Made by a program: the position numbers and the translations under genes. DNA of 23,496 bases from Candidatus Hodarchaeota archaeon (GTDB lineage Archaea; Asgardarchaeota; Heimdallarchaeia; Hodarchaeales; Hodarchaeaceae), in assembly GCA_016840035.1 (NCBI GenBank), contig JAEOTC010000083.1, positions 1 to 23,496 on the forward strand, written 5' to 3'. The notes under the pieces were generated by a model. It searched no databases, was not told the DNA's origin, and worked only from the letters and a program-made list of their open reading frames with translations. Of this stretch, positions 86 through 10,786 are shown piece by piece. The stretch's first letter is position 1. Each line of letters begins with the position of its first letter.

Positions 86-799
86 ATGACACCCATCCTT
101 CGTCGAATTAAAAAAAAGGTTGAAAAATCTCCGATCACCAATTTACCTTCTCCTCCCACTTTGGAAGAAAAAATCTATTCTCAATCTGTATACTATCCTA
201 TCCTTTCTCCCCCACCCACATCATCTGATGAAATATTAAGTCGTCCTCCCCTGCACGAAGAATCAATACCTAGCGATTTTGAATATTCATCTACTATACC
301 AGTTGAAGATGATCTTACATCGGACATTCTTAAAGAAATTAGAGATGGTGGGTTTGATTCTATATTGAAAAGTGTACCTCCTCAAAAACCCAAAGTCTTG
401 CATGTTGAGGAATTAGCTATCAAACAATTTAAAGCGGCAAAAGATGCATACATTAGTGCTGGAGAGAAGCATTTAGAATTAAGATTTTATGAAAATGCAC
501 GTTGCTTATTTTCTTGTGCAGTTTTATGCGTTTTATTGGGTGAAGATGCTTTTCAGGCAGCTCACCTTATGAAAAACCTCAGTGAGAGACTTCCCTCCAA
601 TGTAGTGAATAGTCATGTATTCCAAGGAGTCAAGTTACTATTAAAAGCCACGCTTCTAAAAAACGAAACGTACATGAAGCAGGCAGAACGTTGGCTGTTT
701 CATGATCGAAATCATATGTACAAAGAAGATAGAGAGCTAGTAGAGAGAGCGGTTCGTGAATCAAAACTAGCCATTGAAATGCATGCGTTTGATGCGTAG
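86..799 (+). CDS. Hypothetical protein: Pro/Ser/acidic disordered N-terminus plus C-terminal TPR/alpha-SNAP-like helical domain
   Basis: 237 aa ORF with SD-like AGGAG upstream. Residues ~15-105 are low complexity (PSPP, SPPPTSS). The C-terminal segment ARCLFSCAVLCVLLGEDAFQAAHLMKNLSERLPSNVVNSHVFQGVKLLLKA resembles the SNAP C-terminal helical bundle. Confidence 0.6.
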   Translation: MTPILRRIKKKVEKSPITNLPSPPTLEEKIYSQSVYYPILSPPPTSSDEILSRPPLHEESIPSDFEYSSTIPVEDDLTSDILKEIRDGGFDSILKSVPPQKPKVLHVEELAIKQFKAAKDAYISAGEKHLELRFYENARCLFSCAVLCVLLGEDAFQAAHLMKNLSERLPSNVVNSHVFQGVKLLLKATLLKNETYMKQAERWLFHDRNHMYKEDRELVERAVRESKLAIEMHAFDA

Positions 800-1387
800 T
801 TACGTCTCTAAAATGGACGCTTCTCTTCCATAAAGTGATTTTATCTGATAAAGCTCCATTGGGGCATGTTTACCTTCCTGAATTGCATCAGCAAGCCAGT
901 AAATACCTTTATGAATACCTTCTCCGGTTACAGCACTTGTTTTAAAAATCGACAATATCCTGCTCATCTTCTTATTTATTCCCATAAAATTGGCCAGATC
1001 TTCTTCAGTGCAATCCACTAAATCCACTTTATTGGCAAAGATAGCCAAAGGGATATTCTTCAAATGATTCATTTTTAGCATTCGCCAGAGATAATTTCGA
1101 CTCTCTGGAAAACGGGCCGGATCACTTAAATCGATCACATAGATTAATCCTTTAGAGTTTTTGGTATACATTTCCCATAAAGCTCTTCTGAACTGTAATT
1201 GACCACCTAGATCCCAAGCTGAAAAAGTTACATCTCCAATTTGAATTGTTTCGGCGTTCATTCCAATAGTTGGTGTAGTATCGGGAATCCACCTACCAGT
1301 TTTCAGTCTCTGAAGCATTGTTGTTTTTCCAGCACGATCTAACCCTAATACACTAATCTTCGCATTTTTTTTCATCAAGTAAAACAA
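800..1387 (-). CDS. Arf/Arl-family small GTPase
   Basis: G1 GLDRAGKT, G2 TTPTIGMN, G3 WDLGGQ followed by FRRALWEMY, G4 ANKVD, G5 TSA. The start is uncertain (TTG 1387, TTG 1378 or ATG 1375, downstream of SD AAGGAG). Confidence 0.93.
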   Translation of the reverse strand: MFYLMKKNAKISVLGLDRAGKTTMLQRLKTGRWIPDTTPTIGMNAETIQIGDVTFSAWDLGGQLQFRRALWEMYTKNSKGLIYVIDLSDPARFPESRNYLWRMLKMNHLKNIPLAIFANKVDLVDCTEEDLANFMGINKKMSRILSIFKTSAVTGEGIHKGIYWLADAIQEGKHAPMELYQIKSLYGREASILET

Positions 1388-1580: not shown

Positions 1581-2762
1581 ATGACAAAAACCGGAATCAT
1601 TTGGTCTGACCAATTCACAAAGTACAATCTAGGGGAGGGGCATCCCATGAATGCAAGACGACTAGATATTCCTTATCAATTATATAAAAGTCTTGATTTT
1701 CTGAATAATCCATCCTTTGTAGAATATACGCCCGTAGAAGCTTCAGAGGATGATATCCTAAGGTACCATTCAAAAAACTATATCAAAATGGTTAAGTCTC
1801 TTTCTAAGGCTGGAGATGGGTATTATGGACGATATGGGTTAGGAACAGGAGATTGTCCCGTTTTTCCTGAAATGCATGAATCTTCAAGTTTAATAGTTGG
1901 AGGAACACTAGAAGGGATTAAACGTATCATGAATAAGGATGTCCATCAAGCTTTTTCGCTTATGGCTGGGTTACATCATGCCTTTGAAGAACGAGCAGCT
2001 GGATTTTGCTACTATAATGATGCAGTTGTTGCAATTAACTATCTTCAAGAAGAATATGAAATGAAACGAGTTCTTTACATCGATACTGATGTTCACCATG
2101 GAGACGGAGTATTGGATGCGTTTTACTCCAACAAGAATGTTCTAGGAGTTTCTATTCATGAATCACCTCAATTTCTGTTTCCTGGAACAGGATTATCCGA
2201 TGAAATTGGGAATGAGGATGGTTTGGGTTATACTATTAACATTCCTCTATTTCCAGGAACATGGGACGAGCTCTACATTGATCTTTTCGAGAGAACAATT
2301 CCATGTATTTGGAAAGAATATGATCCAGAGTTTATAATTTGGCAGTGTGGGGCTGATGGTCATTTCGGTGATATTCTAGGTCATTTGAACTTGACTACAA
2401 ATCTTTACAATTATCTCGGGAATAGAATTTCGGAATTAAGCAATAATGGTTCTGCAGATGGGCGTCTATTATTGTTAGGAGGTGGAGGATATAATCCCGA
2501 TTCCGTCGCTCGTGTATGGATGGCAACACTAGCTGGTATTAGTGGGATAACTCTCCCAGAATATTCTCCTAAAGAATGGATTGATTATTGTAAGAAAACA
2601 TATGAGGTAGATGTGAGTCCAAAATTAAATGATATTAAACTTGACCCCCTTAAGATTGAACGACATGCCTTAATTAATGAGGCTAATTCTCAGTATTTAC
2701 AAGTGTTAAAGGAAGAACTGGTAGAGGCAGGGAAGTGGAATATTTGTGCGGAAAAAATTTGA
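1581..2762 (+). CDS. acuC: Zn-dependent deacetylase, class I HDAC/AcuC family
   Basis: GHPMNARR, GDCPVF, GLHHA..ERAAGFCYYND, YIDTDVHHGDGV, SIHE..FLFPGTG, QCGADGHFGD.LG, GGGGY motifs. Confidence 0.92.
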   Translation: MTKTGIIWSDQFTKYNLGEGHPMNARRLDIPYQLYKSLDFLNNPSFVEYTPVEASEDDILRYHSKNYIKMVKSLSKAGDGYYGRYGLGTGDCPVFPEMHESSSLIVGGTLEGIKRIMNKDVHQAFSLMAGLHHAFEERAAGFCYYNDAVVAINYLQEEYEMKRVLYIDTDVHHGDGVLDAFYSNKNVLGVSIHESPQFLFPGTGLSDEIGNEDGLGYTINIPLFPGTWDELYIDLFERTIPCIWKEYDPEFIIWQCGADGHFGDILGHLNLTTNLYNYLGNRISELSNNGSADGRLLLLGGGGYNPDSVARVWMATLAGISGITLPEYSPKEWIDYCKKTYEVDVSPKLNDIKLDPLKIERHALINEANSQYLQVLKEELVEAGKWNICAEKI

Positions 2763-2863: not shown

Positions 2864-4087
2864 ATGAATGATAAAAAATCGGTAGATATTATACAAGAGG
2901 CATTATTCTCATCATCTGTATTTAAAGAAGGTGGAGAAAGAACACTTAATCAGTCTTTTATTCCTGAGGTATTGAATTTTCGGGAGGACCATATTCGAAG
3001 GATATCACAGAATTTTCGTGAACTTTTTTCCTCTGAGAGAGGAGGATATTCCGGTTTTTCTATTAACATGGCTATTACTGGATCTGCTGGAATTGGTAAG
3101 ACCGTAACAAGCCGTTATACAGTAGATCGAATTCAATCAGCAGCAGAAAAATATCATCTTAAACTATATACAGATTATAAGAATTGTTGGACAACTCGCA
3201 CAAAGACTTCTATTCTTCGATCAATACTTCGTGATCAATTTGGGGTGGCAAGTCGTGGTTTTAGCGATGAAGAATCAACTGACATTCTCATTAGACGGCT
3301 CAACTCTGAACAAGCATATCTTCTATTAATTCTTGATGAAGTGAGTGTTCTAAATCAGAAAGATATTCGTGGTTTTGTACATTTATCAGAAGAGTTTGGA
3401 ATGGAGCATCGAATTTCATTAATCATGATTAGTCGTCCAACTGAGTGGAAGGTGGCACTTTCCTCCATGGTTTCCCAAAGAATTTCTGATGTGATTCACT
3501 TCCAACCTTACTCCTATGAAGAAACACGAAAGATTCTAGCTTATCGTGCTGAGCTAGCATTCAAATCTTATGCCTTATCAGAGGATATTATTGATATGGT
3601 ATCTGAAATCTCTGATCAAACAAAGAATTTACGTCATGGTATCGAAACTCTTTATCGTGCTGGAAGGGCGGCTGATCAAAAACGAATAGATGAAATTTCA
3701 CCTGAACTTATTCGTAGAGCTAAGAATGATGTATACCCTGAGATGCGGGCTGATATTTTGGAGGAACTTAACCCACACGAATTATTTGCCGCTCTAAGTG
3801 TTGCTAGAAGATTACACCATAAAGGAATAACAGCCACTACAATTGAACATTCCTTCAAAAATTATCGAATCATATGTGAAGAATGGAACTCGACCCCAAA
3901 TGGTGAAGCTGCCTTTAGAAATTACTTATCAACCTTAGAAGCAATAGGTATTTTGGGAAAAGTTACTAAAGGAGTGAAAGGACGAAAAGGTGTTCGAGCT
4001 AGATTAACAATCCATGATGTTCCAGCTGCAATTCTCATTGAACGAATAGAGGTGTTTCTTGCTAAACGATTAAAAAGCGAGAGATGA
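2864..4087 (+). CDS. cdc6: Orc1/Cdc6 replication initiator (AAA+ plus winged helix)
   Basis: FIPEVLNFRE N-terminal motif, Walker A GSAGIGKT, Walker B LILDEV, IHFQPYS..E..KIL..RAELAF, C-terminal wHTH (FRNYLSTLEAIGIL...GRKG). Confidence 0.93.
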   Translation: MNDKKSVDIIQEALFSSSVFKEGGERTLNQSFIPEVLNFREDHIRRISQNFRELFSSERGGYSGFSINMAITGSAGIGKTVTSRYTVDRIQSAAEKYHLKLYTDYKNCWTTRTKTSILRSILRDQFGVASRGFSDEESTDILIRRLNSEQAYLLLILDEVSVLNQKDIRGFVHLSEEFGMEHRISLIMISRPTEWKVALSSMVSQRISDVIHFQPYSYEETRKILAYRAELAFKSYALSEDIIDMVSEISDQTKNLRHGIETLYRAGRAADQKRIDEISPELIRRAKNDVYPEMRADILEELNPHELFAALSVARRLHHKGITATTIEHSFKNYRIICEEWNSTPNGEAAFRNYLSTLEAIGILGKVTKGVKGRKGVRARLTIHDVPAAILIERIEVFLAKRLKSER

Positions 4088-4286
4088 GTCAGCATTAGTT
4101 ATTGACCGATCTAGAGTTTTATTAGTACCCTGAATTTCAAAATAACAAATAAATTTTCCTCTGTAGCATGATATTCTTACAGATTTTCACTCGAATCGAA
4201 TCTCGAATGATCTAAGCACCAAGAATTCAATATATAATTTTAGTATGTGATTAAATCCAGATTAGAGAAGTAATTTCTTTGTAATA

Positions 4287-4310
4287 CGGGAAGGAAGGTC
4301 TTTTAACTAA
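4287..4310 (+). promoter_or_regulatory. Putative archaeal BRE/TATA promoter for gins23-mcm-hel308
   Basis: Purine-rich GGGAAGGAAGG followed by TTTTAACT at 4301-4308, within the cdc6-gins gap. Confidence 0.3.
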
Positions 4311-4485
4311 ACGCTCAGATAATTCGTTTGTGAAAGGGTTTGTAATAAAAGGTGGAATTCCAATAGAAATGAATCATCTTTCTGAACTATGAAGGACGAG
4401 CACTTCTCACAAAGGAAATTTCCATCGATTCAAATCTTCAACTCCCAGATTGTTTAGGGAATTTGCCCGTGTAAAATGAATTTAG

Positions 4486-5082
4486 GTGGCGACCATCATT
4501 ACAAGTAAATCGAAAAATTATTCCTCAGAGCTTGTTGAACTGGAGCTAGAGTTGAAGAGAATCCTATTTGAGTTTTCTGATACACCTATTTCTGTAAAAT
4601 TCAACAAATCTTTTGCTGGTTTTGAATTTGGAGGAATTAAACTACCACCAGTCACTGAAAACAGTAGGATGGATATTCCCTATTTTATTGCAGAAATTTT
4701 ATTGAAAGAAAACTTGATTGAGGGTTTTAAAAACGATTTTCCATTGTCCTTACAAGAATTAACCGCCTCTGTCCGAAGAGAAGTCCGCCACGGTGAAGTA
4801 CAACCACTCCACCCATTTTTTTACTCTCTATTCAACGAACAGATCCTTAAATCGGATGAAAACGATTCTGATTTTGATGAAATTGAATTAAAACGTCAAA
4901 AAGATCGAATGAAACAATTAATAACTGAACGATTATCAAAAATCATCAAATTATCCAACAGTAACGAATTTAATCCTAAAAAATTAAATTTAACTGCATC
5001 TGAAGAAATTCTAATGAAAAAAATGCACTCATGGGTGTTAAATTGGAAATCGTTAATTAATCAAGATGAGACGAGAGGGTAA
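4486..5082 (+). CDS. gins23: GINS complex subunit Gins23 (Psf2/Psf3-like)
   Basis: N-terminal beta B-domain (IKLPPV....MDIPYFIAEILLKENLI) followed by a helical A-domain (VQPLHPFFY, ERLSKIIK, NLTASEE). It lies immediately upstream of mcm, the conserved archaeal gene order. Confidence 0.85.
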   Translation: MATIITSKSKNYSSELVELELELKRILFEFSDTPISVKFNKSFAGFEFGGIKLPPVTENSRMDIPYFIAEILLKENLIEGFKNDFPLSLQELTASVRREVRHGEVQPLHPFFYSLFNEQILKSDENDSDFDEIELKRQKDRMKQLITERLSKIIKLSNSNEFNPKKLNLTASEEILMKKMHSWVLNWKSLINQDETRG

Positions 5083-5084
5083 TA

Positions 5085-8000
5085 ATGGGTTTAGCTTTCG
5101 ATATAAGAGGACGATTCGAATCCTTCATCAATGAATTTGCAGATGAAACAGGAACCCTACGTTATCGTGAAAAAATACGTAGTTTGCCTCGTCAAGAATT
5201 AAGAAGCTTGTCAATATCTTATAATGATTTGTTACATCACGATCCTCGATTAGCAAGAGAAATCGTAATTAATCCAGAAGAGTGTTTGAGTGAAGGGGAA
5301 AAAGTATTACATGATATCTTAATGCAGGTTGATCCTGACTATTATGATAAGTATCAACTATTCCATATTCGAATCGATAATTATACTGAAAAAGTTCTAT
5401 TACGAACATTGAAAACTGAGCATCTAGGATTACTTACAAGCTTTGAAGGAATTGTGATTGGTGTAACCGAAACAAAACCCCTTTTAATAGAAGGACATTT
5501 TAAATGTGCATCCTGCGGTCATCATCAAGTAGAAAATTTTCCTGAAGGTATATATAGCCCTCCGTACCAATGTGGAGATGAGCATTGTCAGAGAAAGGGA
5601 TCTCTCACTCTCTTAATTGAGGATAGTCAATTTATAGATTGGCAAAAGATAACTATTCAAGAAAAACCTGAAGAGCTTCCTCCTGGACAATTACCACAAA
5701 GTATTATGATTCATGTGCTAGATGATTTAGTAGATCAAGCTCGCCCAGGAGACCGTGTAAAAATTGTGGGTATTTTAAAGGCACGCGCAACACGGATGCT
5801 TAAAAGAGGGCAACTAGCGACGTATAATAAATTTTTCCAAGGAGTGAATATCGCAAAAGAGACCGCAGAGTATATTGATATTGAGATTACAGAGGAGGAT
5901 TTAGAACAGATTGAAGAGTTGTCAAAATCCCCGTATATCATTAAAAAGATACGAGACTCCCTTGCTCCTTCCATATATGGCCATGATTTAGTAAAAGAAG
6001 CCATTGCAACCCTATTATTTGGTGGAAGTGAAAAAAAAACACCAGATGGTTTGAAAATACGTGGTGAATCCAATATCTTACTGATCGGGGATCCAGGTGT
6101 TGGAAAATGTGTTGTTCCTGAAACAGAGGTGGTTCTTGCTTCAGGAGAAAGATGTGCCATAGGAAAACTTGTTGAAAGGGAAATATCGGGTGAATTTATA
6201 ACTGATGATGGTTATTATCAACCTTCGGATTTAAATTTAAAATCCTTAAATGAAGACGGACATATTGTCGATACTAATAGTAATTTATTCTGGAAAAGGA
6301 AATCACCCAAGTTTTTATATTTAATAAAAACTCAAAGCGGGAGAAGGATTAGGGTTACTCCCACACATCCATTTTTCGTTTGTAAAGACGGAAATATTCA
6401 GGGAATCACTGCTAAAAAATTAACAACTGAAACATTTCTGGCTGTACCACGAAAAGTTCACATCAAAGGGTATAACCATCTAAAAGTTCATTATGAGAAG
6501 AGTCGGGCAAATAACGCGGTTCGATTAAATCCTCCACAAACACTCACTTCTTGGTTTGCTGACTTTTTAGGTTTATATCTTGCGGAGGGTTTCGCTCAAG
6601 ATAGTGGAAAATCGAAAACTATTTGGTTTACCAACTCTGATCAAAGTTTATTATCAAGATTCGAATCTCATTTAAGTAATCTAGGAGTTAATTATACCCG
6701 AAGAAAATCTAGTAAGAAGACTGCATGGGATATTTATTCAGCGTCTTGTGAATTATATAATTTTCTTGAGGCTCTCGAACCAGGATTGGTGAAAAAGTCT
6801 AGGTTGAAAAGGGTTCCAAATCCAATTCTAAGAGCTCCGACTAATATTGTGGCGATTTTTATAAGAGCTTTCTTTGATGGGGAAGCCCATATTTCCCATA
6901 ATAGACCTAAAATCGAAGTAGCTTCAGCCTCGTATAATTTGCTTAAGGATATTCAATATTTACTACTGCGATTTGAAATTATCTCCCATATCAAAGAGAA
7001 AATTGTTAATGGGGAAATATACTATCGAATGAATATTTCCGGAATACCTGAAATAATACGATTCTATGAAAATATTGGATTTTCGATAGATTATAAGGCG
7101 GAGAGGTTAAGAAATGCCTCTACAACGCCGAAGAAAGCCAATACAAATACAGATATTGTACCAAATGTGGGAGAATTAATAAAAAAGATTCGCTTAGATG
7201 CAGGACTGTATCAGCGGGAGTTCTCACTCTCACGCTCCGCAATTTTACATTATGAACAAAAAGATTGTCATCCTTCACGAAATCATCTTCAGACTATCGT
7301 TAATGATCTTAGAAACAGGGGGATTAAAAGTAAGGAATTAGATCGTCTGGAAAAATTAAGCCATTCTGATGTGTACTGGGATCGTGTCGTGGAAATAATT
7401 CGAATTCCTTCAGATACACAATGGGTTTATGATTTACAAGTCCCCAAGATCCACAATTTCATTGCTGACGGATTTATTGTTCATAATAGCCAATTACTAA
7501 AATTTGTATCAAAACTTGCTCCTAGAGCATTATATACAACAGGTAAGGGGAGTACAGCTGCTGGTTTGACTGCTGCTGTCATTCGTGACCAAGACACCGG
7601 TGAAATTACTCTAGAAGCAGGAGCTCTCGTTTTAGCCGATCAAGGTATAGCTATGGTTGATGAATTCGATAAAATGCGTCCTGATGATCGTACGGCTATC
7701 CATGAAGCGATGGAACAACACACGATAAGTATAGCTAAGGCTGGTATTGTTGCTACTTTAAATGCTCGAACATCAATATTAGCAGCAGCAAACCCTAGAA
7801 GAGGTAGATGGAATCCATACAAAGCCACTGCAGAAAACCTCAATCTTCCTCCAACGATTTTATCACGTTTTGATTTAATTTTCGTTCTTGAAGATAAACC
7901 TGACCTGAAAGAGGACCATGATAAAGCCTCCCATATACTACGAATTCATAAATTACAAACGCTACCTGTTGATCCACCGATCGAGCAAACATTGTTACGA

Positions 8001-8534
8001 AAATATATTGCCCATGCTCGTAGAACGATGCAACCGAGACTCACAGATGAAGCTGAAGCTCGGTTACTCGAATACTATACTGATCTTCGAAGTTCAAGTG
8101 GGAAGATCGAGGAAGGACGGCCTGATCCCATTGCGATTACTCCGCGTCAACTTGAAGCATTAGTAAGACTATCTGAAGCTCGGGCTAAAATGAGATTAAG
8201 TGAGGAAGTTACTTATGAAGATGCTTCTGGTGCAGTGAATCTCATGAATGCTACCTTAGAAAAGTTAGCTAAGGATGCAGAAACCGGCAAACTTGATATC
8301 GATAAATATTCCTCTGGAATAAGCGATCAAAGTCGGAGAAGATTGGATCGGATTGATGCATTAATTGATCATATGCTGAAAGAGTCTGATAATGCCCCTA
8401 TTCCCATTGATTCAATTATCGAGCAAGCAGTTGAAGATGGTTTAGATAAAAACCAAGTCGAACAAGCTCTGGCAAATATGATTCGGATAGGTAAACTATT
8501 TGAACCTCAATCGGGACGAGTACAAAAAATTTAA
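5085..8534 (+). CDS. mcm: MCM replicative helicase precursor with one intein (about 689 aa after splicing)
   Basis: Zn finger CASC-x18-CGDEHC, IQEKPEELPPGQLP, Walker A GDPGVGK|SQLLK interrupted by an intein, GSTAAGLTAAV, Walker B MVDEFDKM, Arg finger ILSRFDLIF, sensor 2 ITPRQLEALVRL, C-terminal wHTH. Confidence 0.97.
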   Translation: MGLAFDIRGRFESFINEFADETGTLRYREKIRSLPRQELRSLSISYNDLLHHDPRLAREIVINPEECLSEGEKVLHDILMQVDPDYYDKYQLFHIRIDNYTEKVLLRTLKTEHLGLLTSFEGIVIGVTETKPLLIEGHFKCASCGHHQVENFPEGIYSPPYQCGDEHCQRKGSLTLLIEDSQFIDWQKITIQEKPEELPPGQLPQSIMIHVLDDLVDQARPGDRVKIVGILKARATRMLKRGQLATYNKFFQGVNIAKETAEYIDIEITEEDLEQIEELSKSPYIIKKIRDSLAPSIYGHDLVKEAIATLLFGGSEKKTPDGLKIRGESNILLIGDPGVGKCVVPETEVVLASGERCAIGKLVEREISGEFITDDGYYQPSDLNLKSLNEDGHIVDTNSNLFWKRKSPKFLYLIKTQSGRRIRVTPTHPFFVCKDGNIQGITAKKLTTETFLAVPRKVHIKGYNHLKVHYEKSRANNAVRLNPPQTLTSWFADFLGLYLAEGFAQDSGKSKTIWFTNSDQSLLSRFESHLSNLGVNYTRRKSSKKTAWDIYSASCELYNFLEALEPGLVKKSRLKRVPNPILRAPTNIVAIFIRAFFDGEAHISHNRPKIEVASASYNLLKDIQYLLLRFEIISHIKEKIVNGEIYYRMNISGIPEIIRFYENIGFSIDYKAERLRNASTTPKKANTNTDIVPNVGELIKKIRLDAGLYQREFSLSRSAILHYEQKDCHPSRNHLQTIVNDLRNRGIKSKELDRLEKLSHSDVYWDRVVEIIRIPSDTQWVYDLQVPKIHNFIADGFIVHNSQLLKFVSKLAPRALYTTGKGSTAAGLTAAVIRDQDTGEITLEAGALVLADQGIAMVDEFDKMRPDDRTAIHEAMEQHTISIAKAGIVATLNARTSILAAANPRRGRWNPYKATAENLNLPPTILSRFDLIFVLEDKPDLKEDHDKASHILRIHKLQTLPVDPPIEQTLLRKYIAHARRTMQPRLTDEAEARLLEYYTDLRSSSGKIEEGRPDPIAITPRQLEALVRLSEARAKMRLSEEVTYEDASGAVNLMNATLEKLAKDAETGKLDIDKYSSGISDQSRRRLDRIDALIDHMLKESDNAPIPIDSIIEQAVEDGLDKNQVEQALANMIRIGKLFEPQSGRVQKI
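6108..7487 (+). mobile_element. Intein with LAGLIDADG homing endonuclease in mcm, inserted directly after the Walker A lysine
   Basis: Begins CVVPETEVVLASG (residue 342), block B IRVTPTHPFF, endonuclease motifs FLGLYLAEG and FIRAFFDGEA, block F VYDLQVP..HNFIADG, ends IVHN (residue 801), +1 residue Ser. Length 460 aa. Confidence 0.95.
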
Positions 8535-8557
8535 TCATTTGGTTATTTGGGGTCCCA

Positions 8558-10786
8558 ATGAAGATTGAAGCATTACCGATTCAAGCGGGAATAAAAGAAA
8601 TAATAATAGAATCTGACGGTATTAAAGATTTATACCCACCTCAAGAGTCTGCTTTTAAACAAGGACTGTTAAGTGACAAAAACCTTGTAATCTCTATTCC
8701 TACCGCGGCAGGGAAAACTTTACTTGCAGAAATTGCTGCACTACAACATGTTCTTGAAAATCGTAGTAAAGTCGTCTATTTATGTCCATTACGAGCATTA
8801 GCAAGTGAAAAGTACCAGAATTTTAAACGGTTTCAATCTCTGGGTGTAAAAGTAGCAATTACTTCTGGAGATTATGATTCTAAGGACCATTATCTTCCTC
8901 GATATGATATAATTATTTCGACAAATGAGAAATTTGATGCCCTTATGCGCCATCAAGTTACTTGGATCGAGGATGAAGTAAGTCTAGTCATAGTTGATGA
9001 ATGTCACTTATTAAATGATCAGCATCGTGGACCAACATTAGAAATCTTATTGGCGCGCCTTTTACAGAGGAATTCTGGCTTACAAATCATAGCATTAAGT
9101 GCAACTGTAGGAAACAGTGAGGAACTTGCAGAATGGTTGGATGCCGAACTTGTACAAAGTGATTGGCGGCCTGTTCCCTTAAAAGAAGGAGTTTATTATG
9201 ATGATTATGTAACATATTCTGATTACTCTACTCGCGATATTCCATATAAAAGGAAGGATCCTTTGCTCAATCTAGCTCTTGACTCCTATCATTCAAAAGA
9301 ACAGCTTTTAATATTTAATCCTTCCCGTAGATCCGCTGTAGCAACTGCTAATAAGATAGGTAATCAACTAGAACCCCTCCTTAGCCATCTTGAAAAAAAG
9401 AAACTCTCTGATAGGGCTAGTACAATTACTACAAACCTATCGGATCCATTATCAAAACAATTGGTTACCTGTGTTAAGAAAGGAACTGCCTTTCATCATG
9501 CAGGATTAAATTCTAATCAGCGTTCGATAATAGAGGAATCGTTTAAAGAAGGTTTAATTAAAATACTATGCGCTACGCCTACTTTAGCCGCTGGAATAAA
9601 TGTTCCCGCAAAAAGAGTGATCATTTCGAGTGTTTATCGGTATTCAGTTGAACAAGGCTCATATCCAATTATGACACTTGAATATAAACAGATGAGCGGC
9701 CGTGCTGGGCGCCCTCAATACGATAAAGAAGGTGAAGCGATTTTAATCGCAAAACAACCTCATATAGTGCAATGGCTTATGGATCGATATATTTTAAAGG
9801 ATTCAGAAGCGGTATATTCGAAATTAGCAGCTATGCCAGCCCTCCGTCGAAGTATTTTAGGGTTAATTGCCTCGAGAGTTATACCTGATATTGAGGAATT
9901 ACTAAAATTCTTTGAAAAAACATTTTATGGTTTCCAGTATGAGGCAGCGTTGTTGGAGAACAAAATTCGGGAGGTAATCGATATGTTAATCGTCTGGGAA
10001 ATGATTAATCCTTTAGATGCACGTGAAACACTTAGAGCTACTCCATATGGAACCAGAGTAAGTCAGCTCTATCTTGATCCCGAAACGGCGGCTTATGTTG
10101 TAGAAGGATTGAAGGATGTAGTAGAAAAAGGGATTTCCAAAATTCATCCAATTGCGTTGTTTGATTTGTTGGTAGGTACTCCAGATATGGTTAACTTGAT
10201 GTTCGGAAAAGCAAATCAAGCTGCTGCTGAAAAAAGGTTTGATAAATTTGCTAGTCGCCTATTAAAATCTGTTCCAGATAAGGATGACATTGAATATGAT
10301 TTTCGATTGCGGGATTTCTATACTGCATTATTTTTATGGGATTGGGTGAATGAATTACCTATTGAAAAGTTACTTATTCGTTATAAAATCGGAGCAGGAG
10401 ATGTACATCGAATTACTGACACTGCCACATGGCTTACCGCCGCTATTAGTGAAATAACCTCTATTTTTGCTAAAGCCAATCCTCGTTTTCTTTTCCTCAC
10501 CAAGAAAGCTGAAACATTGTCCGAAAGAGTGAAATATGGAATTAAGAGCGATGCAGTAAGTTTAACTACTATTAAAGGTATAGGTCGCAAAAGAGCGCGC
10601 ATTTTACTGGATCATGGAATCCGAAACACCACCCAACTTGCGAAAATTGAACAATCTCAAATTTCAAGTATCCCTGGATTTGGAAAAGAGCTCACAAAAA
10701 CAATAATGAACGAAATTGCTAAAATGGAAGCATCTGAGCAAGATCAGAGAATGCAAGATATAGGAAGTTCTGATATTCTTCACTAA
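8558..10786 (+). CDS. hel308: Hel308/Hjm Ski2-like SF2 DNA helicase
   Basis: Q-motif LYPPQ, PTAAGKT, PLRALASEK, DECH, LSAT, AFHHAGL, TPTLAAGINVPA, QMSGRAGRP, RVKYG and C-terminal HhH (KGIGRKRARIL). Confidence 0.95.
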   Translation: MKIEALPIQAGIKEIIIESDGIKDLYPPQESAFKQGLLSDKNLVISIPTAAGKTLLAEIAALQHVLENRSKVVYLCPLRALASEKYQNFKRFQSLGVKVAITSGDYDSKDHYLPRYDIIISTNEKFDALMRHQVTWIEDEVSLVIVDECHLLNDQHRGPTLEILLARLLQRNSGLQIIALSATVGNSEELAEWLDAELVQSDWRPVPLKEGVYYDDYVTYSDYSTRDIPYKRKDPLLNLALDSYHSKEQLLIFNPSRRSAVATANKIGNQLEPLLSHLEKKKLSDRASTITTNLSDPLSKQLVTCVKKGTAFHHAGLNSNQRSIIEESFKEGLIKILCATPTLAAGINVPAKRVIISSVYRYSVEQGSYPIMTLEYKQMSGRAGRPQYDKEGEAILIAKQPHIVQWLMDRYILKDSEAVYSKLAAMPALRRSILGLIASRVIPDIEELLKFFEKTFYGFQYEAALLENKIREVIDMLIVWEMINPLDARETLRATPYGTRVSQLYLDPETAAYVVEGLKDVVEKGISKIHPIALFDLLVGTPDMVNLMFGKANQAAAEKRFDKFASRLLKSVPDKDDIEYDFRLRDFYTALFLWDWVNELPIEKLLIRYKIGAGDVHRITDTATWLTAAISEITSIFAKANPRFLFLTKKAETLSERVKYGIKSDAVSLTTIKGIGRKRARILLDHGIRNTTQLAKIEQSQISSIPGFGKELTKTIMNEIAKMEASEQDQRMQDIGSSDILH

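Follow-up and report, generated by a model that had tools for sequence, protein, structure and literature searches.

In eukaryotes, the C-terminal part of SNAP contacts the N-domain of NSF. SNARE-like proteins have been reported in Heimdallarchaeia only, and a preprint of October 2026 (10.64898/2026.10.19.760048) describes Heimdallarchaeia SNARE-like complexes that resist mouse NSF and raises the question of what recycles them in archaea. Supplementary tables aside, the Asgard papers on Arf, this Heimdall SNARE preprint, Eme et al. 2023, later Asgard surveys and surveys of Asgard signature proteins by structure were not found to mention any SNAP-like protein, and we found no published report of a half-SNAP-like protein paired with an Arf GTPase. 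Here we describe P0001, a 237-residue protein encoded at positions 86-799 of a contig from Candidatus Hodarchaeota archaeon (Heimdallarchaeia; Hodarchaeales; GenBank assembly GCA_016840035.1, contig JAEOTC010000083.1). The window, meaning the whole 23,496-nt stretch of DNA that was analyzed, is contig C25 of a 4.3-Mb assembly that is 87% complete. The explanation that best accounts for the findings as a whole, to which we give an even chance, is that P0001 is a modular adaptor composed of a helical head of the SNAP C-terminal type and a disordered arm of linear motifs.

A head with the predicted fold of the SNAP C-terminal part

A preliminary description of this window had proposed that P0001 is a truncated SNAP-family adaptor, possibly for an AAA+ ATPase, with a Pro-rich disordered arm in place of the remaining tetratricopeptide repeat (TPR)-like repeats, encoded next to an Arf GTPase in a possible trafficking module. 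The gene and its features, all on the forward strand, are:

86..799: gene for P0001, a 237-aa half-SNAP-like protein; open reading frame (ORF) with ATG start, stop included, and homologues at 48-85% identity.
101..160: polybasic N-terminus and LPxPP motif (residues 6-25, RRIKKK...NLPSPP), conserved in the family alignment and disordered in the model.
191..265: Pro-rich linker with conserved motifs (residues 36-60, YYPILSPPPT...ILSRPPLHEE), with a predicted local distance difference test score (pLDDT) < 50.
305..382: short amphipathic helix and LKSV (residues 74-99, EDDLTSDILKEIRDGGFDSILKSVPP), WH2-like by eye only, conserved family-wide.
398..796: C-terminal helical domain of the SNAP/Sec17 C-terminal type (residues 105-237), from the predicted structure.
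497..664: stretch that the preliminary description aligned to alpha-SNAP (residues 138-193), in the hhalign register.

In an AlphaFold2 model built from 15 sequences, residues 1-105 were disordered, with pLDDT mostly < 50, and residues 107-236 were helical. The N-terminal ~105 residues are rich in proline, so the disordered N-terminal arm of the preliminary description holds. Only 6-7 helices are present in the model, all within residues 107-236. When the alignment was deepened to 58 sequences, residues 74-237 reached a pLDDT of 87 overall and ~97 over residues 113-233. The head has a conserved face that comprises Y122, K128-E131, N137, F179-G181 and E214-D215.

Structure searches with this head favored SNAP. 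Foldseek comparison to the PDB gave probabilities of 0.9-1.0 together with a root-mean-square deviation of ~4 Å only for Sec17 and the alpha-SNAP chains of 20S complexes, and Sec17, gamma-SNAP and alpha-SNAP all fell within the top 9 of 48,161 chains. The TPR domains of CHIP, Sgt2, Sec72 and Fis1, by comparison, superposed at 7-16 Å, with those of CHIP, Sgt2 and Sec72 at 9-11 Å. Superposition placed residues 106-237 of the model on Sec17 172-291, and the head is modeled with the C-terminal helical bundle fold of SNAP (Sec17 ~172-292). The ESM Atlas concurred: when residues 100-237 of P0001 were used as query, SNAP clusters made up 29 of the 30 nearest entries, with a score of 0.93 and 201 of 256 features shared. 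SNAP clusters were likewise nearest to P0056, a relative of only ~20% identity, whose Atlas model had a template modeling score of 0.66 to a SNAP cluster. Since SNAP came out ahead in both Foldseek and the ESM Atlas, the head does not behave as a generic TPR domain without preference for SNAP.

Profile comparison pointed to the same part of SNAP. SNAP sequences were gathered with a 74-residue Sec17 bait, which is 100% identical to 1QQE 193-266 and served as bait only; this retrieved only fungal SNAPs, and the resulting SNAP profile is therefore narrow. Comparison of 59 family sequences to 102 fungal SNAPs by hhalign gave a P value of 0.001 and a probability of 21%, aligning P0001 142-202 with Sec17 202-261, and reversed profiles scored 17-21 compared to 29 for the real pair. 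Each of five family subgroups found its best match on Sec17 202-271 (P 0.005-0.056), and in one of them the most conserved motif of the family, F/Y-x-x-E-D, aligned with the invariant LDKW of SNAP. The string on which the preliminary description had based its motif line-up, ARCLFSCAVLC...LLKATLLKN, is present in the translation at residues 138-193, and hhalign chose the same register unprompted, a register that is also compatible with the structural superposition. Taken together, we consider it probable, by a modest measure, that the P0001 head is remotely homologous to SNAP.

Distribution of the family among Asgard archaea

Homologues of P0001 were found at 48-85% identity in 17 cases, two of them named Hodarchaeales and 'Heimdallarchaeota B3'. 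Using a profile of these homologues, we detected the gene in each of the 21 genomes searched from its own GTDB family (f1) and genus, and in 0 of 19 genomes that belong to the class but to other families. When 1.84 billion cluster representatives were searched exhaustively by profile, 43 proteins were returned, all sharing the C-terminal domain of P0001 and none of them a SNAP. With a broader profile (A4), the family was detected in 65 of 76 genomes of a Thorarchaeota family (f11), 4 of 4 genomes of family f19 and 5 of 5 of family f20, as well as in three GTDB families sampled by one genome each. The P0001 family was thus found to be small and Asgard-only, comprising Hodarchaeales, one Thorarchaeota family and a few minor families.

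Most of the 21 genomes carry a 270-300-aa paralogue along with the gene. In the Thorarchaeota members, the Pro-rich arm is replaced by a four-Cys cluster and a further two TPR-like hairpins. Representative loci are:

G000:C93:1509-2333, reverse strand: 274-aa paralogue in this genome (locus L021), laid out like P0001 with KKKKKK-DLPTPP, a lengthy Pro-rich arm, the ITNEIQAELRNRSFGSSILEKAP helix and the head.
L066:5843-6802, forward strand: family member of the Thorarchaeota type, with other loci at L067-L069, L072 and L075; the WH2-like motif has canonical spacing, SIMEGLNLKKVE.

With their additional hairpins, the Thorarchaeota-type members might be nearer to a full-length SNAP-like solenoid. 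Genes surrounding the paralogue encode a carbamoyltransferase, a zinc-ribbon protein, a transglutaminase-like protein and a NUDIX protein, with no Arf gene among them. Distant members neighbor genes for an RsmB-type methyltransferase, an aldehyde dehydrogenase, TatD, PHP and an O-methyltransferase, and no trafficking, AAA+ or actin genes were seen in these neighborhoods. Both lineages have a gene for an RsmB/F-type RNA methyltransferase close to the family gene (L024:11317-12246; L066:6792-8138): in Hodarchaeales it lies two genes upstream, and in Thorarchaeota it is convergent with the family gene and overlaps it. This shared neighbor could be an old synteny remnant or a coincidence.

Evidence against a SNAP relationship and the generic scaffold alternative

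A number of results count against a SNAP relationship. At the level of statistics, 3 of 40 block-permuted controls matched the real hhalign score, the hhalign P value was 0.17 when shallower alignments were used, BLASTP against SNAP gave an E-value of 0.24, and the Foldseek E-values of 0.08-0.8 are non-significant. Searches of a single sequence against profiles also failed. P0001 matched no Pfam family at E <= 10 by hmmscan, where the SNAP cut-off is 25 bits, and so is not a match to the Pfam SNAP family (PF14938), a check that the preliminary description had itself suggested. A whole-genome scan with PF14938 at E <= 10 matched 20 TPR loci, none of them on contig C25. Pfam searches of 23 family members gave nothing relevant, phmmer and hmmsearch runs against PDB sequences returned no SNAP and only noise (eIF3c, a STAS protein and NifU), and a hidden Markov model (HMM) of the fungal SNAP C-terminus left the P0001 ORF outside the top 25 of the 4,099 ORFs in the genome. 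No giant-virus SNAPs were recovered from the viral contigs that were scanned.

The residues by which SNAP engages its ATPase are also missing from the head. In the hhalign register, the helix KLLLKATLLKN aligns with Sec17 LKSLIDAVNEGD and is basic or hydrophobic instead of acidic. At the positions aligned to E249, E252 and E253 of alpha-SNAP, which we take to be its acidic NSF contacts, P0001 has K, T and L. The C-terminal Leu of SNAP, presumably needed for NSF stimulation, is not conserved either, and the C-termini of the family vary (AFDA, EIH, IEQS and others).

Finally, the distribution is not the one expected of a SNARE partner. Common in Thorarchaeota, the family went undetected in the other Heimdallarchaeia families that were searched, and so does not track SNARE-like proteins; outside Hodarchaeales the two distributions are nearly opposite, which makes a dedicated SNARE role unlikely for the family as a whole. 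Pfam SNARE (PF05739) found nothing credible in the genome, a weak test since Heimdall SNAREs need dedicated models. With neither the SNARE-binding sheet nor the NSF-engaging residues, P0001 is most probably no functional counterpart of SNAP. Of the truncated SNAP-family adaptor put forward in the preliminary description, the SNAP/Sec17-type fold of the C-terminal ~130 residues is retained and membership in the family is not; the NSF-engaging residues and the SNARE-binding half are missing.

The same results define the leading alternative, that the head is a generic TPR- or PCI-like helical scaffold whose likeness to SNAP reflects convergence of short alpha-solenoids, with no evolutionary or mechanistic tie. 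Failure of every sequence-to-profile method, from Pfam to the PDB-sequence HMM searches and the SNAP HMM ranking, counts in its favor, and a SAC3/GANP cluster was listed first in the Atlas structure search. However, SNAP comes first by three methods of different kinds for two members sharing just ~20% identity, three separate SNAP proteins appear within the top 9 of the structure ranking, canonical TPR domains superpose badly, and the hhalign register is both constant and in agreement with the structural superposition. We regard convergence as a somewhat unlikely alternative to remote homology.

Conserved motifs of the arm

Although modeled as disordered, the arm is not random in sequence. Residues R6, R7, L20, P21 and P24 are invariant in the family alignment (A1), and the [RK]n-LPxPP pattern to which they belong reappears in distant family members. 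Judged from sequence, residues 6-25 fit +xxPxxP, the pattern seen in SH3 ligands of class I. Within the linker, P43, I50, R53 and P54 are invariant in the same alignment, and an ILxRPPFPE-type motif is retained across Hodarchaeales orthologues. Overall, three arm motifs (the polybasic-LPxPP segment, the RPPFPE-type motif and the amphipathic helix DILKEIRDG-GFDSI-LKSV) are conserved in Hodarchaeales and recognizable in distant members.

The third motif suggested a different function, that of an actin-assembly or delivery factor with VASP/WASP-like logic, in which profilin or SH3-type domains would be ligands of the polybasic, Pro-rich arm, the WH2-like helix would provide a G-actin site, and the head would oligomerize or target the protein. 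The string ILKEIRDG...LKSV resembles LLxxIxxG...LKKV, which we take to be the WH2 pattern, and the motif is conserved throughout the family. At the homologous place, Thorarchaeota members read (M/L)QAELKASIMEG-LN-LKKVE, with the canonical spacing IxEGxxLKKVE. A WH2-type regular expression matched just 2 of the 4,099 ORFs in the genome, P0001 and a short-chain dehydrogenase, although the expression was devised after the sequence had been seen. An Arf GTPase has also been found to co-precipitate with Lokiactin in a cultured Asgard archaeon (PMC13716822).

Other features of the family speak against an actin role. The Hodarchaeales spacer exceeds the canonical one by 3 residues, LKKV is degenerate in many orthologues (LQHV, LETI and others), and Thorarchaeota-type members lack the Pro-rich arm altogether. 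Pfam WH2 (PF02205) at E <= 10 had no match in 23 members, 10 isolated peptides and 10 distant members, and whole-genome scans with it left the family gene unmatched in 5 genomes. No actin, profilin or gelsolin gene was present near the family loci examined, and the only Asgard WH2 motifs that we found described lie inside gelsolins. On balance, we consider an actin factor quite unlikely. If it were nonetheless true, the polybasic, Pro-rich and WH2-like arm would make P0001 a stand-alone WH2-type actin regulator in archaea.

The neighboring Arf gene

Downstream of P0001, the window encodes:

800..1387, reverse strand: Arf-family small GTPase (P0002), 195 aa, convergent with P0001; PF00025 at E 1.8e-47; likely true start ATG at 1375.
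1581..2762: histone deacetylase gene.
2864..10786, forward strand: run of replication genes encoding Orc1/Cdc6, GINS (Sld5-like), MCM and a Hel308-type helicase, syntenic in relatives.
5085..8534, forward strand: the MCM gene within this run, split by an intein with a LAGLIDADG homing-endonuclease domain.

The Pfam alignment of P0002 covers residues 5-168 on profile positions 11-173, and its translation contains the G motifs GLDRAGKTT, WDLGGQ and NKVD. Most of the N-terminal amphipathic helix region is absent, leaving only ~4-8 residues before strand 1, and a conserved tail of ~25 residues follows the G domain at the C-terminus. A paralogue of P0002 with 63% identity lies inside a 325-aa open frame (G000:C119:1100-1603).

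As the preliminary description stated, the stop codons of the two genes abut exactly, at 797-799 for P0001 and 800-802 for the Arf gene. All 20 loci inspected show this tail-to-tail arrangement, as does one further locus, with an intergenic distance of 0-100 nt; in the genome that remains, the two genes lie on fragments of contigs. Across the 20 genomes in which it occupies this position, the Arf retains 82-96% identity, compared to 37-72% for P0001 orthologues. All genomes bearing the pair belong to one genus-level clade, however, and in this clade the order of the whole block is fixed: RsmB-type methyltransferase, CYTH protein, P0001 gene, Arf, histone deacetylase, Orc1/Cdc6, GINS, MCM and Hel308-type helicase. 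Because the entire block is syntenic, the adjacency to Arf is conserved but gives no evidence for a functional module beyond ordinary synteny. The genes are also convergent and therefore not co-transcribed from a shared promoter.

Outside this clade the pairing does not extend. No Arf was found within 1.5-6 kb of the paralogue and ten distant members, and searches detected orthologues of this Arf in the one clade alone, with 0 of 76 genomes of f11 positive at E <= 1e-30. Conservation of the pair across Asgard genomes, raised in the preliminary description, thus holds for the genus-level clade and fails for the paralogue and the Thorarchaeota members, and the case for a trafficking module with Arf is weak, given a single clade, a syntenic block from RsmB to the histone deacetylase, and convergent genes. 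That P0001 is an effector or regulator of its neighbor, with the head binding Arf-GTP and the arm relaying the signal, would suit an adjacency kept in 21 genomes, the strong constraint on the Arf and the fact that many eukaryotic Arf effectors are all-helical, but it is very unlikely given that the CYTH, RsmB and histone deacetylase genes are equally fixed in place, that no common promoter exists, and that the Thorarchaeota family carries P0001 relatives with no such Arf.

The replication genes that follow the histone deacetylase gene may mark a replication origin region. Pfam analysis of the MCM gene found the MCM P-loop in two stretches, along with Intein_splicing and LAGLIDADG_3.

Discussion

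The reading of P0001 as a SNAP-type head joined to a motif-bearing arm leads to a simple scheme for how the protein may work. The constant part is the ~130-residue helical head, predicted to fold like the C-terminal portion of SNAP/Sec17, and this head in Hodarchaeales is attached to a ~100-residue arm, predicted to be disordered, with conserved short linear motifs. The folded head would dock on one partner and the arm would recruit others. Whether the protein serves as an adaptor in this way is, in our judgment, evenly poised. By analogy to SNAP and NSF, the candidate partner for the head would be the N-domain of a Cdc48-type AAA+ ATPase, although we think it unlikely that the head has an AAA+ partner.

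A stronger version of this scheme is that the head is the archaeal ancestor of the C-terminal domain by which SNAP binds NSF, and the family a pre-eukaryotic 'half-SNAP' that docks on a Cdc48-type ATPase and leads this ATPase to clients by way of the arm. We regard this as improbable. If it were true, eukaryotic SNAP would have arisen by the addition of TPR hairpins to the head module, and clients in Hodarchaeales might include the very stable SNARE-like tetramers that mouse NSF fails to disassemble. A conserved Asgard family with the predicted fold of the SNAP C-terminus is a concrete candidate to be tried against Hodarchaeal Cdc48 and the SNARE-like tetramer. Should neither the SNAP nor the WH2 reading hold, P0001 would be another Asgard-specific TPR-like scaffold, and its adjacency to Arf plain synteny.

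Known systems to which P0001 was compared include PCI-domain repeats (proteasome lid Rpn subunits, CSN8, eIF3, and SAC3/GANP of TREX-2) and MIT domains (Vps4, spartin, MITD1 and archaeal CdvC). Unlike PCI proteins, P0001 lacks a winged-helix subdomain after the repeats, PCI scores fall below that of Sec17, and no language-model or profile signal connects the two. With the WH2 actin regulators (WASP/WAVE, VASP and thymosin-beta4), P0001 has in common the order of polybasic segment, Pro-rich segment, and amphipathic helix with LKxV. It has no C/A or EVH1 regions and no Pfam WH2 match.

The SNAP family (alpha-, beta- and gamma-SNAP and Sec17; PF14938; PDB 1QQE, 2IFU, 9CRU and 6MDM) differs from P0001 at the N-terminus, where SNAP has a SNARE-binding twisted sheet of ~9 TPR-like helices and a hydrophobic membrane loop, and P0001 has its disordered Pro-rich arm instead. 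In the head, LC, D, A, N/S, K-LL-A and the ED/LD motif coincide in the weak profile match, and the language-model features of SNAP are the nearest to those of P0001.
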